A stretch of DNA of 58,727 nt from Candidatus Woesearchaeota archaeon (lineage in GTDB: Archaea; Nanobdellota; Nanobdellia; Pacearchaeales; GW2011-AR1), in NCBI GenBank assembly GCA_964443535.1, contig CAYUCQ010000001.1, positions 1-58,727 of the forward strand, read 5' to 3'. The position numbers and the translations under genes are program-made. Positions 49,008 to 55,193 of the stretch are shown here, in pieces (within the stretch, counting starts at the first letter, position 1; each line of letters starts with the position of its first letter). The notes below the pieces were generated by a model. The model made no database searches. It was given only the letters and a program-made list of their open reading frames with translations, and was not told the DNA's origin.

Positions 49008-49238
49008 ATGGCTATGGTAACTACAATACAAATAAGCGAAAGCTTGCAAGAAACATTAACTAAGAAAAAATTATATGAAAAAGAAACCTACGAAGAAATA
49101 ATCTGGGATTTAATAGAAGATTCTATGGAGTTATCAGAAGAAGCTAAAAAAAATATAGAAAAATCAGAAAAAGAAATAAGAGAGGGCAAGTTGCATAAGT
49201 GGGAAGACATAAAAAAGGAATTAAAAATAGATGTATGA
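49008..49238 (+). CDS. antitoxin (paralogous N-terminus to 43962..44192)
   Basis: MAMVTTIQISESLQETL. Overlaps the downstream RelE-like gene by 8 nt. Confidence 0.55.
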   Translation: MAMVTTIQISESLQETLTKKKLYEKETYEEIIWDLIEDSMELSEEAKKNIEKSEKEIREGKLHKWEDIKKELKIDV

Positions 49239-49479
49239 AATTTTATTTTCCCATTCAGCAAAAGAAAAACTAAAAGAACTGCCTAATAATATAAAAAATG
49301 ATATAGGGAGAGCATTAGAAAGAATCAAAATAAGGCCCTTCTCTTTTATAAAAAGATTAAGAAATAGCCCCTATTATAGATTAAGAGTGGGAAATTACAG
49401 ATTAATTACTAATATAGATGCCATCAAATTAACAATTAATATTATAGAACTTGGACATAGAAAAGACATTTACAAATAA
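49231..49479 (+). CDS. relE: RelE/ParE-superfamily toxin
   Basis: 82 aa. YRLRVGNYRLITNID....INIIELGHRKDIY is typical of RelE/ParE. Confidence 0.7.
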   Translation: MYEILFSHSAKEKLKELPNNIKNDIGRALERIKIRPFSFIKRLRNSPYYRLRVGNYRLITNIDAIKLTINIIELGHRKDIYK

Positions 49480-50810: not shown

Positions 50811-51203
50811 TTACCAGACTTCTAATTTAACATCTATATTTTCAAAATCTTTCTTATCTCTTGTTATAAGAATAAGTCCATTCGCTCTAGATATAGAAGC
50901 AATCATTAAATCAAATTCTTTAGTTTGTTTTCCAATTTTATTTAATCTAGAATACTCTTGGCCAAATGTTTGGCAAGAATCAATATTTAGATCCAAGACT
51001 TTAACAGAATCTAAAAAATCATTAATAATGATAAGTTCTTTCTCAGATCTAGAAGATAAAAAAGCTCCTTTGAATAATTCACATAAACTTATGCAGGTTA
51101 TAGATAAATCGCTATGTAGACTAATATTCCTTATCTTTTCTATGATAATTTTATTCCCTCTTAAAAAATCGACAACGATATTTGTATCTAAGCAATACGT
51201 CAA
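50811..51203 (-). CDS. vapC: PIN-domain toxin (VapC-like)
   Basis: YCLDTNIVVDFLRGN, LCELFKGA, FDLMIASISR and LITRDKKDF. Confidence 0.75.
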   Translation of the reverse strand: MTYCLDTNIVVDFLRGNKIIIEKIRNISLHSDLSITCISLCELFKGAFLSSRSEKELIIINDFLDSVKVLDLNIDSCQTFGQEYSRLNKIGKQTKEFDLMIASISRANGLILITRDKKDFENIDVKLEVW

Positions 51204-51427
51204 AATTTAACCTCTCTTAATTTAGCTTTTTTTCTATCCTCATAAATTTTCTTTTTAATTGCATCCCATTCATTTGCATTATCAGAAAACGCCCCCGCAA
51301 AGTCCATTATATTCTTTCTCTTCTTTCCCATACTAAGTTCTATCACAGTCTCAGAAAAAGACTTGCCTTTCTTTAGAACCTTTAATTTCTCATAGGCATC
51401 ATTTGATAAAGATATAACTTTAACCAT
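51200..51427 (-). CDS. VapB-like antitoxin
   Basis: From the ATG at 51427: MVKVISLSNDAYEKLKVLKKGKSFSETV. 4-nt overlap with the PIN gene. Confidence 0.6.
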   Translation of the reverse strand: MVKVISLSNDAYEKLKVLKKGKSFSETVIELSMGKKRKNIMDFAGAFSDNANEWDAIKKKIYEDRKKAKLREVKF

Positions 51428-51461
51428 ATATGCGCATATGCATACGCATATATAAAACTTT

Positions 51462-52513
51462 CTATTGAGTTGTATTCCATAAAATATCAATAATTTCTCT
51501 TTTTAATCGTTCTCTTAATTTATAACTCTCTGCCCAGACTGAATAAGCCTTCCATCCACGATAACTATAAAAAATATCTCCAAAGCCCATCTTGCCATCT
51601 CTATATAGTCCTATTTTTCTCTTCATATTCCTAATGTTTCTTTTTCTCAATAATTTCCATTTTTTATAATTTCTAAATCCTACAAAATCAATACCGCGGT
51701 AGATAGAAATAATTCTAGATTTATTAGGATGCAAACAGAGTTTTAATTTTTGGCTCAAGAAATTCTCAATTTCTATTTTCCAAGTTTTCAATTGCTTCAA
51801 AGAGTAATGCAAAATAACAAAATCATCAACATACCTAATATAATACTTAATCTTCAAAATATGTTTTACAAAATAATCTAACTCATTTAAATAGACATTA
51901 GCAAAAAATTGAGAAGTCAAATTGCCGAGAGGCATGCCTTTCAGAGTTACTCTCTCTCTCTCTGCCTTCCAAAGTTCGCATTATTCAAAATTCTTCTAAT
52001 CAATTGTATAATTTTTTCATCTTTTATTTTTTTACAAATAATCTCCATTAAAATATCATGATTAACTTCTTGAAAATAATGCTTAATATCTGCTTTTAAG
52101 CAAAATCCAGAATAAGTGAAATTACGAGTTACCTTTCTTCTAAATTCATCAAATCTTTGCAAAGCAAACAAATTGCCTTTATTTTTCTGATTTGCACAAG
52201 AATCGTAAATAAAGCTTTTTTCAAAGATTTTTCCTATGATATTAATTAGTGCGTGATGAACAATTCTGTCTCTAAAATCTGATTTTGAAATAACTCTTGT
52301 TTTAGGATCTCTTAAAACAAAGGTAGTTAATGGAAGAGGACTATAACTCATATTAATAAGTTCATTATGCAATTCAAGCAGATTCTTCTCAAGATTCTGC
52401 TCAAAGTCAATAATATCTTGTCTTTGAGTTTTACCTTCTCTTGCTTTCCTCCAAGCAATTACTAAATTACCCATAGAGCAAAAAATAGGATAAAGATTTT
52501 TGTAAGTTTCCAT
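51462..52513 (-). CDS. DGR-type reverse transcriptase, split into two ORFs (52513..51947 and 51935..51462) by a frameshift in an (AG)7 tract
   Basis: The N-terminal ORF carries RT motifs 1-3 (PKTRVISKSDFRDRIVHHAL; CLKADIKHYFQEVNH). The C-terminal ORF starts MPLGNLTSQFFANVYLNELD (DGR-RT-like GNLTSQ motif) and has YVDDFVIL plus a thumb. Removing one AG unit gives a continuous ~349-aa protein. Confidence 0.85.
51950..51963 (-). repeat. (AG)7 dinucleotide tract ((CT)7 on the plus strand) at the RT frameshift site
   Basis: Plus strand is CTCTCTCTCTCTCT. It lies inside the only ~34-nt window where both RT reading frames are open. Confidence 0.9.
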
Positions 52514-52537: not shown

Positions 52538-52622
52538 GCTATTCTGCCATTCTCATTCGAGTTAGCGAGGTTATCGTTGTTCGAGTTGAGATTAAGGTTG
52601 CTGTTCAAGTTCAACCTCGAAA
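52538..52622 (-). repeat. DGR template repeat (TR), 85 nt
   Basis: Aligns to VR 52960..53047. On the coding (minus) strand it is rich in AAC/AAT codons (LNLNSNLNLNSNNDNLANSNEN). Confidence 0.9.
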
Positions 52623-52820: not shown

Positions 52821-53657
52821 TTATTCTTTTCCCTGCAATATTCTTAACGCTCTCTCTCTTCTCTCCAAGAGTTCGCTTTCTTGTCTTCCAAATTCTGCTT
52901 GAATTTCAGAGATATATCTGCCCAAAAAATTTTGCGAACTGGCTTCGCCACGAACTAACGCTACCCTGCCACTCCCACCCGAGCAAGCGAGGTAACCGCC
53001 GCCGTACGAGCCGAGATAAAGGCCGCAGTCCAAGCCCAACCCCGAAATTCCAGAATCTCTAGCATACCAAGTTCTACTTCCTTTTGTATCAAATAAAGGC
53101 AGACCTAATACATCTGTCTCTGTAAATTTTTTTCCATTCCATTTTCCATCAAGTCGTTCATCATAAACAACACTAAAATCATCTCTTGGAATAACTTTCC
53201 ATCCATATCCGGCTTTATCTTCAGATAAAGCAACATCTAATCCACTTATTAAAACAGGAAGCTTTAATTTTCCTTGTTTATTTTCAATATGAGGAATAAG
53301 TTCTTTAATAACTTCTTTATTTGGCGCATAACTATCTCTTTCACTTCTTAAAACAAGAGAAGGCGTATCAGAATAATGTTTATCTTTTACTATCTCCATA
53401 ATTTCAGGTCTGCTTAAATCAGCCAAGTTAGCAACTCTTATTCCTAAAGGTCTTAATATGCTGTCTACTCTTGCAGCAACAGGAAAATTGCTTCCCAACA
53501 TAGTCTTAGTTTTTTCATCATACCAAACATTTCCAAAACTCTTAACTTGTTCGTAAATACTTTTTGCGCCAGCCCCTTCTATAAAACTCTTAATAAATAT
53601 AGTTGGAACTCTCCAATTAAAATTTCCTTCTGCTTCAGTTTTAGTCTCTAAACTCAT
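52821..53657 (-). CDS. DGR target protein with C-terminal variable region (C-type-lectin-fold-like)
   Basis: 278 aa. The VR encodes SGLGLDCGLYLGSYGGGYLACSGGSGRVALVR, against TR-encoded SRLNLNSNLNLNSN-NDNLANSNENGRIAH. No signal peptide or TM seen. Confidence 0.8.
   Translation of the reverse strand: MSLETKTEAEGNFNWRVPTIFIKSFIEGAGAKSIYEQVKSFGNVWYDEKTKTMLGSNFPVAARVDSILRPLGIRVANLADLSRPEIMEIVKDKHYSDTPSLVLRSERDSYAPNKEVIKELIPHIENKQGKLKLPVLISGLDVALSEDKAGYGWKVIPRDDFSVVYDERLDGKWNGKKFTETDVLGLPLFDTKGSRTWYARDSGISGLGLDCGLYLGSYGGGYLACSGGSGRVALVRGEASSQNFLGRYISEIQAEFGRQESELLERRERALRILQGKE
52940..52950 (-). promoter_or_regulatory. small GC hairpin (TGGC-GAA-GCCA on the coding strand) 10 nt 3' of VR; candidate DGR homing-associated hairpin
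   Basis: Seen only next to VR, with no equivalent 3' of TR. The stem is only 4 bp, so this is weak. Confidence 0.3.
52960..53047 (-). repeat. DGR variable repeat (VR), 88 nt
   Basis: 23-24 mismatches to TR, all at TR adenines on the coding strand, plus one in-frame 3-nt insertion. Confidence 0.9.
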
Positions 53658-53744: not shown

Positions 53745-55193
53745 TTAAGTCTCAATAACTTTCTTGATAATCTCCATAGCTCTTTTCTTATCAACTTTGC
53801 CGCTAAATTTTGCTATAATCATTCCCATGTAAGCGTTTTCTCTTAATCCAGGCTTTTCCATTACAATTTTCCTGACTTCTTCTTCTAATTCATCATTTCC
53901 AGCTTTTTCAACTTTAACTGCCTCTTCAGCACTCTTGCCGTTTAAAATATCCCATAAAACTTCCCTGACATGCTCTTTATCCAGCTTTCCAGCGCAAACT
54001 CTCTCAAGCACGCTCTCCAAAATTCTCTCATTTAAAACGCCTTTAACCTCTTCAAAACTTTTCCCGCTCTTTTTCGCAAAATCATTTCTCCATAATGCAA
54101 TCATCTTGGCAATCAAATTAGCATCCTTATCATAAACATTCATTAATAAATTAAATTCTTCAAGCAGCTCGCTGTCAGCTAAGATTAAGTTGGACATCTC
54201 TTCACTTAGCCCTTTCTTTCTTAATTCGTCCCTAATATCTTGCTTTAATCTCGGCAGCTCTTTCTTTATCTTATTAATTTTCTCCCTGCCAATTTTCAGC
54301 AAAGGCAGATCTGTTTCAGGATACATTCTTGCGCCTCCTGGAATTGGCCTTAAGAATTCAGTTTTTCCATCAGGCAAAGCGTTTCTTACATTTCCATCTT
54401 TCTTGCTATTCTTCAAATCCTCAATCTGCCTTTCAATTTCCAATTCAGTTGTTTTTACCATTATTTTTGGCTCTTGAAATCCTTTTATCTCAACTCTATC
54501 ATGCCCTTTAATTGAAATATTCAAATCCTGTCTTATAGTCCCTATTCCTCTTTTTACACGGCAAGCTCTCAAAATCTCGCCTAATTTTAAGGCAGTTTCC
54601 TTTATCTGTTCAGGAGTTTTCAAGTCAGCATTTGTGCCTATTTCAACAAGAGGAGTTCCAAGCCTGTCAAGCCTGTAAATACTCTCTGCTCCATCCTTGC
54701 TTACTAATCTCGCAGAATCTTCCTCAATCATTATAGTTGCAATGCCTACTTTTCCAAAACTCATTTCAATATATCCATCATGCGCAATTAAAACAGTTCT
54801 CTGAAATCCAGAAGTATTGCTTCCGTCAATAACAGTTTTCCTCATGATTTGGCTAAAAGGATAAATCTCGCAATTCAAAAGAAGAGCAATTTTAATTGCT
54901 TCATCTAAAGCAGCTTCATCAATGAAGTGCGGCGGCTCTTCATCTAATTCAACCAAGCATGTGCTGTCAGAATATCCTTCATAAGCAAACTCTTTTCTTT
55001 TTGAAGCTTCATATTCAACAGCTGCATCAATCTCGCCTGACTCTCCTGCAACAGGATGCAGCCTTCTCCTCACAATAAAATGCGGCTTGTCACTCCTTAA
55101 AAAAGCAGGGCATCTGCAGAATAGCTTTCTTCCTGTATCAAGCTGCTGATGAATTTCTAATCCTGCTTTCATTCCTAATTTTGCATAGTCCAT
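53745..55193 (-). CDS. gatE: GatE-like (GatB/GatE family) tRNA amidotransferase subunit, short form lacking the AspRS-like insertion domain
   Basis: N-terminus MDYAKLGMKAGLEIHQQLDTGRKLFCRCP (GatE-type IHQQL), RQDLNISI, ARMYPETDLP and a YqeY-like tail. 482 aa. Confidence 0.75.
   Translation of the reverse strand: MDYAKLGMKAGLEIHQQLDTGRKLFCRCPAFLRSDKPHFIVRRRLHPVAGESGEIDAAVEYEASKRKEFAYEGYSDSTCLVELDEEPPHFIDEAALDEAIKIALLLNCEIYPFSQIMRKTVIDGSNTSGFQRTVLIAHDGYIEMSFGKVGIATIMIEEDSARLVSKDGAESIYRLDRLGTPLVEIGTNADLKTPEQIKETALKLGEILRACRVKRGIGTIRQDLNISIKGHDRVEIKGFQEPKIMVKTTELEIERQIEDLKNSKKDGNVRNALPDGKTEFLRPIPGGARMYPETDLPLLKIGREKINKIKKELPRLKQDIRDELRKKGLSEEMSNLILADSELLEEFNLLMNVYDKDANLIAKMIALWRNDFAKKSGKSFEEVKGVLNERILESVLERVCAGKLDKEHVREVLWDILNGKSAEEAVKVEKAGNDELEEEVRKIVMEKPGLRENAYMGMIIAKFSGKVDKKRAMEIIKKVIET

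Follow-up and report, generated by a model that had tools for sequence, protein, structure and literature searches.

A candidate phase-variable repeat in the reverse transcriptase gene of an archaeal diversity-generating retroelement

Among natural systems that diversify proteins, diversity-generating retroelements (DGRs) are the most extreme, and the ultra-small DPANN archaea carry them especially often; to our knowledge, little is established about how DGRs are regulated. Here we analyzed a DGR on contig CAYUCQ010000001.1 of a Candidatus Woesearchaeota archaeon (GenBank assembly GCA_964443535.1; the whole stretch of 58,727 nucleotides is called the window below), whose reverse transcriptase (RT) gene is interrupted at an (AG)7 repeat. 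Simple-sequence-repeat (SSR) contingency loci are classically built of poly-G or AG/CT tracts. In the loci of this kind known from Helicobacter, Campylobacter, Neisseria and Haemophilus, including the phase-variable methyltransferases (phasevarions), the number of repeat units sets the reading frame (PMC11868660). The archaeal locus resembles these bacterial loci in that a mono- or dinucleotide repeat lies inside the gene at one over-represented site, is polymorphic among close relatives and leaves the open reading frame (ORF) otherwise intact. It differs from them in that the host is a DPANN archaeon, that the switched gene would be the engine of another diversity generator and not a surface or restriction-modification gene, and that the position of the repeat is conserved across a deeply diverged family (~60% identity) in which 87% of the alleles are in the presumed OFF state. 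In a 2025 review on phase variation, the archaeal side of the subject is left to future work.

DGRs of DPANN archaea were described by Paul et al. 2015 (PMC4372165) and are covered in the surveys of Wu et al. 2018 (PMC5758913) and Roux et al. 2021 (PMC8144416). Like the published elements, the one studied here has a target gene with a variable repeat (VR) in its 3' part, an adenine-rich template repeat (TR) directly upstream of the RT, adenine-specific differences between TR and VR, an RT with the [LIV]GxxxSQ and YxDD motifs, and hosts among the Nano-, Pace- and Woesearchaeota of groundwater. Unlike them, its RT is interrupted at a conserved repeat, both here and in about 90 related lineages. 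Text searches of these three papers returned no mention of an RT gene with a frameshift, a repeat or phase variation, and within the DGR surveys, reviews and the 2025 phase-variation review (Paul et al. 2017, PMC5436926, lay outside this scope) we found nothing published on any of the three in the RT genes of DGRs. New, if our reading is right, would be a contingency locus, in Archaea, controlling a DGR.

Two other kinds of system bear comparison. Long homopolymers allow transcriptional slippage to rescue frameshifted genes in endosymbionts, at poly(A) tracts, and in insertion sequence (IS) elements, and such rescue is also known from dnaX; it acts at A/T homopolymers and with a fixed frame relation. 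The present family shares with these cases out-of-frame genes whose intact halves are kept under selection and whose break lies at a slippery repeat, and departs from them in its AG or G units, in the occurrence of both out-of-frame registers and in the length change observed at the level of DNA. Reversible mutator switches, such as the control of mismatch-repair genes by repeats or by prophage excision, alter the mutation rate of the whole genome. They have in common with this locus a stochastic, genetic on/off control of mutation-generating capacity, whereas the repeat described here would gate a hypermutation system targeted to a single gene.

The RT gene of the window lies on the minus strand and is read as two ORFs. 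The upstream ORF (51947..52513, 188 amino acids, found as an exact protein on two public contigs) carries motifs 1-3 and ends ...NNANFGRQRERE (RERE), its TAA (51949..51947) abutting the repeat, while the downstream ORF (51462..51935, 157 amino acids, found as an exact protein on four public contigs) carries motifs 4-7 and the thumb and begins MPLGNLTSQFF, at the Met of GMPLGNLTSQ. The minus-strand (AG)7 tract at 51950..51963, identified by direct reading, is the sole lesion in the gene; its context is ...GGAAGGC AGAGAGAGAGAGAG TAACTCTGAAAGGCATGCC... and, over a longer stretch, ...AATGCGAACTTTGGAAGGC(AG)7TAACTCTGAAAGGCATGCCTCTCGGCAAT.... Read backwards from the downstream ORF, its frame stays open to 51980, beyond which stands a TAA (51983..51981), and three-frame translation together with simulated alleles gave a 34-nucleotide stretch (51947..51980, minus strand) that is open in both frames. 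Because the tract lies within this stretch, a change in unit number alone restores the RT gene. An initial sequence-only reading had placed (AG)7 in a shared overlap of about 34 nucleotides bounded by two TAAs and had predicted that deletion of one AG would yield a continuous RT of about 349 residues, and all of this was confirmed: the simulated (AG)6 allele encodes a continuous protein of 349 amino acids (...NNANFGRQRERVTLKGMPLGNLTSQFF...), and the (AG)9 allele one of 351. With 4, 5, 7, 8 or 10 units the RT is cut off early, the predicted N-terminal product being 188 amino acids for (AG)7 and 205 for (AG)8. In the window the 14-mer is unique, and 100 dinucleotide-preserving shuffles contained no copy of it. 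No second dinucleotide repeat in the whole 58.7-kb window reaches 7 units, long homopolymers are absent, and the only one to reach 5 units is a (CT)5 at 52850..52859 (AG on the coding strand), which lies in the same cassette, in the target gene, at its 3' end and downstream of the VR.

A nucleotide motif, GCGAAC(TTT), adjoins the repeat (51971..51982 in the window; loci L091-L210 and L211-L230), and its frame differs among genes; it takes the form AATGCGAACTTTGRAA-(AG)n in genes of the AG type and GGGGGGCGAAC in those of the poly-G type described below. An ATG embedded in this motif (51981..51979) is in frame with the C-terminal half in some alleles, for example (AG)8 here, and such ORFs start MRTLE.RERE....

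The restored 349-residue protein matches Pfam RVT_1 (E=2.7e-20), and thousands of RT homologs were found in DPANN archaea, the best full-length relative among 5.8 billion clusters being 75% identical. In our family alignment (A2), the DGR-type motif 4 (LGNLTSQ) and YVDD are both invariant. Motif 3, KADIKHYF, which holds the first catalytic Asp, lies at 52073..52096 (invariant columns K140, D142, Y146 and F147), motif 4, MPLGNLTSQ, which carries the DGR-type signature and was used as the anchor for the family scans, at 51909..51935, and motif 5, the catalytic YVDD, at 51822..51833 (invariant columns Y227, V228, D229 and D230), all on the minus strand. The restored RT keeps 68 of 68 family-invariant residues, and no second lesion was found across the 349 codons. 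The residues encoded by the tract lie in the loop between motifs 3 and 4. An AlphaFold2 model of the restored RT has a mean predicted local distance difference test score (pLDDT) of 86.5 and only two segments below 50, one of which, residues 181-187 (FGRQRER), includes the tract-encoded residues and lies between a helix and motif 4. Among relatives the loop varies in length from 0 to ~20 residues, and several of them have RERERE or GGGGER at the position of the tract. Since the loop is predicted to be disordered and is variable in length in the alignment, in-frame alleles of differing length should be tolerated, which a switch of this sort needs; the model suggests a disordered surface loop that would accept such changes.

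The length of the tract varies in DNA within the population from which the window comes. Contigs from a groundwater project that cover the same 7-9 kb locus were fetched via exact look-ups of the RT ORF proteins. (AG)7 was present in three assemblies, namely the window, L003 (run SRR1658465) and L004, and (AG)8 in L001 and L002 (run SRR1658462). The L008 contig begins with G(AG)7, and because the base preceding the (AG)7 tract is C, its allele has at least 8 units. Over 7.3 kb, L001 and the window differ by 2 single-nucleotide polymorphisms (SNPs), one AG unit, a 24-nucleotide VR deletion and a scaffold gap, and by nothing else; the tract therefore changes faster than almost everything else at the locus. 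The VR deletion in L001 is in frame, falls between short AACT/GGCT repeats (equivalent to 53013..53036 of the window) and leaves a target protein of 270 amino acids. The public protein collection contains both half-ORFs as well as the 205-residue product of (AG)8. The sequence-only reading had suggested looking for mixed (AG)6/(AG)7 populations; across the assemblies we found 7 versus 8 units and no (AG)6.

Several contigs begin or end inside the repeat tract (L008, at its start, L123, L129 and L180), and many assemblies of the window population break in the RT or VR region (L005-L010), as expected if tract and VR are heterogeneous among reads. Dense SNP clusters occur at the ends of short contigs that otherwise equal the window (52097..52226 in L002; 52097..52253 and 51317..51404 in L004; 51317..51404 in L003) and suggest coexisting strains or chimeric assembly with a related DGR.

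The repeat recurs at the same loop across the family. We scanned metagenomes for (AG)6 followed, after 8-38 nucleotides, by codons of MPLGN[LY]T, and measured the frame from motif 3 to motif 4. At least 120 RT loci of DPANN archaea carry six or more AG units just before motif 4; among the 120 matches listed, 13 are in frame, 45 at +1 and 49 at +2, and 13 were unmeasurable. Dereplication of these matches at 95% flank identity gave 94 lineages and 101 lineage-alleles, of which 13 are in frame, 40 at +1 and 48 at +2 (binomial p=2.3e-6 against 1/3). The in-frame share is thus 13%, where 33% is expected under neutral length, and just one of the 45 tracts of 14-17 nucleotides is in frame. The out-of-frame share of 87%, above the neutral 67%, points to selection for OFF. 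A single unit change produces a continuous ORF from motif 3 to motif 4 in 86 of 88 out-of-frame alleles. Upstream of motif 3, 74 of the 76 cases that could be measured have an ORF of full length, and from motif 4 to the stop 76 of 80 do, both like intact genes; among the lineage representatives, 78 of 79 N-terminal and 80 of 81 C-terminal halves are free of stops. The ratio of nonsynonymous to synonymous substitution rates (dN/dS) is 0.17-0.19 in both halves, equal to that of pairs with in-frame members. By these sequence measures, the related out-of-frame RT genes are not decaying.

Tract length is polymorphic in 7 of the 12 lineages with several members, six of them besides that of the window. 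L108 and L176 are identical over 9.4 kb save 6 nucleotides of tract, L098 and L191 over 1 kb save 2 nucleotides of tract, and two sister lineages each contain an in-frame and an out-of-frame allele (L106/L173 and L097/L140). Between L106 (out of frame) and L173 (in frame), all 16 VR differences fall at TR adenines. Between L181 and L167, both out of frame with lengths that flank an in-frame one, 11 of 15 do so (MAFFT alignment). Since these VR differences at TR adenines separate close alleles, retro-mutagenesis occurred within the time that the tract takes to change.

The enrichment is also evident in RT genes that were not chosen for repeats. In a genome-derived set of the best 80 loci by score, which is biased towards intact genes, all are in frame, and 11 of the 80 carry (AG)5 to (AG)13, (TC)13 or G7 to G11 in the loop. 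Tracts of at least five AG units or at least eight G are 109-fold denser in the 110 nucleotides before motif 4 than in the remaining 384 kb of these loci; four such tracts lie outside the loop, three of them also inside RT genes. Three family RT loci (L013, L018 and L071) come from metagenome-assembled genomes labelled Gammaproteobacteria, 'bacterium' and Methanosarcinales, and are probably mis-binned DPANN contigs. A viral origin was rejected, with 0 viral-contig matches for either the AG or the poly-G pattern. No second RT copies were found on the metagenome contigs in our search for them. One contig, Ga0209542_10005738, bears two AG-tract RT genes, L115 and L133, the latter out of frame and the former with its motif 3 outside the fetched stretch.

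Split genes were also reached from the protein side, by a search with the C-terminal half that returned more than 120 clusters of ORFs consisting of this half only, many of them on long contigs; 90 of the clusters start at the Met of MPLGN. We fetched eight split RT genes that had been picked as such ORFs with their DNA unseen, and all eight have a repeat at the break. Those of the AG type have (AG)7, (AG)9, an AG tract of 17 nucleotides, and a pair of lengths, (AG)11 and (AG)12, from two runs of the same project; those of the poly-G type have G9 versus G10 in different samples, G10 versus G9, G12, and G14. Poly-G is thus an alternative repeat unit at the same loop, likewise out of frame and polymorphic. 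The motif GGGGGGCGAAC / GCGAACTTT recurs in differing reading frames, as expected if the frame at this site is repeatedly reshuffled. In two genomes (L024, ~3246, and L040, ~3204), a second poly-G tract (G9) lies at the same position inside the C-terminal half of the RT, about 50 codons past motif 4, where it encodes S-W-G-G; this could be a second slippery site.

We hypothesize that a conserved hypermutable repeat gates DGR hypermutation by slipped-strand phase variation and is mostly OFF in nature, a reading that we consider probable though well short of certain. Gain or loss of AG units during DNA replication would move the C-terminal half of the RT, with motifs 4-7 and the catalytic YVDD, into or out of frame. 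At 7 or 8 units, the two alleles seen, ordinary translation would yield the 188- or 205-residue N-terminal fragment alone and the DGR would be OFF; 6 or 9 units would give the full-length RT and allow adenine-directed VR mutagenesis to start again. The same device, built of (AG)n or poly-G, would be conserved across the DGR RTs of Woese-, Pace- and Nanoarchaeota-type DPANN archaea, and a small, constantly regenerated ON subpopulation would diversify the target protein, after which the result would be locked in. This supposes three things: alleles that are out of frame have no RT activity, a clone switches often and in both directions, and OFF is favoured by selection. As at phase-variable loci, we find a frame-setting coding repeat in an otherwise intact ORF, length polymorphism, and an over-represented repeat that is conserved in position, and changes of length in the DNA suffice to account for the data. 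The sequence-only reading had proposed just such a slipped-strand switch on hypermutation and had suggested looking for a repeat at the same position in orthologous DGR RTs; that repeat is present in about 94 lineages, and the proposal is supported by the 7 versus 8 units here, the polymorphic relatives, the sister pairs with putative ON and OFF alleles and the ~100-fold enrichment in the loop. If the hypothesis is correct, one stochastic mutational device, a slippery repeat, controls another, targeted retro-mutagenesis, so that most cells keep a proven variant as a small, constantly renewed minority explores new ones. There would then be a conserved, family-wide contingency locus in Archaea, the annotation of many archaeal DGR RTs as fragments would be explained, surveys that score DGRs as active or inactive should read tract length, and VR diversification would be predicted to track the fraction of in-frame alleles in time-series metagenomes.

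Several observations weigh against this hypothesis. No in-frame allele of the window lineage was found in five or six assemblies or among 15 billion proteins, and an exact look-up of the 349- and 351-residue in-frame products in the public protein collection found neither. The VR is the same in the (AG)7 and (AG)8 contigs apart from the indel, and because it is static in this way there is no sign of current DGR activity at the locus. The tract lengths come from consensus contigs, which hide within-sample mixtures. As for the share of the RT family that is split or repeat-bearing, each estimate is biased or noisy and we claim no fraction: the protein search with the C-terminal half gave only proteins of similar length, and what an exhaustive search over cluster representatives returned was mostly fragments and members of distant families. 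The shortage of in-frame alleles, finally, requires the added assumption of selection for OFF, and equally fits expression from out-of-frame genes.

In that last case the out-of-frame gene would be the normal state, with hypermutation dosed continuously by a slippage throttle or a two-piece enzyme and not switched in DNA, which we regard as unlikely while giving it real weight. A throttle would produce traces of full-length RT through slippage of RNA polymerase or 2-nucleotide slippage of the ribosome, AGA and GAG codons being able to re-pair perfectly 2 nucleotides away, in either direction, within the repeat, which in the (AG)7 allele is followed by a zero-frame TAA. We give this version a similarly minor chance. 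It would account for in-frame alleles being below one third (13/101) while both halves are under purifying selection, and for the nearly equal out-of-frame registers (40 versus 48), both of which could be rescued by 2-nucleotide slippage one way or the other; the out-of-frame L181 and L167, with VRs that differ mainly at TR adenines, fit it as well. Yet the 15-nucleotide allele intermediate between these two would be in frame, and a transient ON state in DNA explains their VR turnover; moreover, tract length change in DNA is directly seen, there is no canonical slippery heptamer (X XXY YYZ) at the tract nor a single conserved frame relation, and no conserved stimulatory structure lies 3' of the tract (median minimum free energy -0.6 kcal/mol versus -0.7 in controls). 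We know of no established mechanism by which RNA polymerase or ribosomes slip on dinucleotide repeats. Classical programmed ribosomal frameshifting is not supported, since frames 0, +1 and +2 number 13, 40 and 48 and show no fixed relation, and a version with a downstream structure was rejected as a general feature, since across the 94 lineages the folding of the stretch between tract and motif 4 is no stronger than that of controls or shuffles. A strong hairpin of 6-10 base pairs is present between tract and motif 4 in a few loci (L167/L181, L127, L099, L014 and L192), one example after the tract being CCTTGGCTTGAAGAGCCAAGG and another having a UUCG loop. The two-piece version, in which separate synthesis of an N-terminal half (motifs 1-3) and of a C-terminal half whose first residue is the GMPLGN Met is followed by assembly into an active enzyme, strikes us as improbable. 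Split genes are known in Nanoarchaeota, both RT halves are conserved, the break falls within a loop predicted to be disordered, the clusters of C-terminal halves so often start exactly at that Met, and in the (AG)7 allele the stop of the upstream ORF lies 11 nucleotides before the ATG of the downstream one. The Met is, however, equally conserved in intact genes (ATG in 76 of 80) and so is not specific to split ones, and by eye no well-spaced ribosome-binding motif precedes the downstream ATG. An active site combining the motif 3 Asp and YVDD would have to form across two chains, and neither the hypermutable repeat at the break in eight of eight genes nor the in-frame alleles within the same lineages would be explained.

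The sequence-only reading had itself named two alternatives to a switch, a dead RT and an assembly or sequencing error, and both are now largely excluded. In the first, slippage would have inactivated the gene of the window lineage and the tract would drift in length without return to function. The exclusively out-of-frame alleles (7 and 8 units) of this lineage, the lack of an in-frame product in the collections, the VR that is static between samples save for the 24-nucleotide deletion, and the 3-nucleotide indel between TR and VR are all compatible with such a death. We nevertheless hold it to be quite unlikely. The gene has no other lesion and retains every family-invariant residue, a change of one unit would make either allele intact, and TR and VR show no substitution at any of 55 non-adenine positions, so any inactivation must be very recent; and independent recent deaths cannot explain the ~88 other lineages in the same state, with the tract as the sole lesion, intact halves and dN/dS of ~0.18. 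In the second, the true sequence would be (AG)6 and the gene intact, as could be imagined because repeats are error-prone in some sequencing technologies and several assemblies break in or near the tract (L008, L123, L129 and L180). This is hardly credible when three assemblies give (AG)7 and two give (AG)8 across runs and assemblers that differ (k127 and k141 MEGAHIT-style contigs, scaffolded assemblies and an NCBI record), both the reads and the k-mers used are much longer than the 14-nucleotide tract, the in-frame version is called nowhere, and the same pattern is present at about 100 loci from many projects, some of them on contigs with 23-28x coverage.

The remainder of the cassette lies upstream of the RT on the same strand. 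The TR (52538..52622, 85 nucleotides, adenine-rich) sits in the interval that separates the target gene from the RT, shortly before the RT start, and the VR (52960..53047, 88 nucleotides) occupies the 3' part of the target gene (52821..53657, 278 amino acids, from the ORF list), all on the minus strand. In the comparison of TR and VR, 24 of 24 substitutions are at TR adenines (20 A>G and 4 A>T) and 55 of 55 non-A positions are identical; a single 3-nucleotide indel makes the VR one codon longer. With a DGR-clade RT, an adenine-restricted TR/VR pair and a VR at the 3' end of the neighbouring target ORF, the element is a DGR. What it lacks is an intact, expressible RT, every recovered allele of the window lineage being out of frame at the tract, and as sequenced it appears to be an OFF (or throttled) DGR. 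Avd and IMH/hairpin elements are not universal in archaeal DGRs, and among the window ORFs there is no Avd-like one between the target gene and the RT. The target protein has no sequence match in Pfam, NCBIfam or PDB.

A neighbouring GatE gene and the source names of the RT homologs (Nano-, Pace- and Woesearchaeota) identify the host, as far as sequence comparison goes, as a DPANN archaeon. The GatE homolog (53745..55193, minus strand, 482 amino acids) matches GatE models of ~620-630 positions in two separate stretches and appears to be without an internal domain. Directly downstream of the RT, on the minus strand, lie a VapB-like ORF (51200..51490) and a PIN-domain toxin (50811..51203). A second toxin-antitoxin pair downstream of the RT, on the plus strand, consists of a small antitoxin-like ORF (49008..49238) and a ParE/RelE-type toxin (49231..49479), whose homolog on L001 has a Pfam ParE_toxin match.

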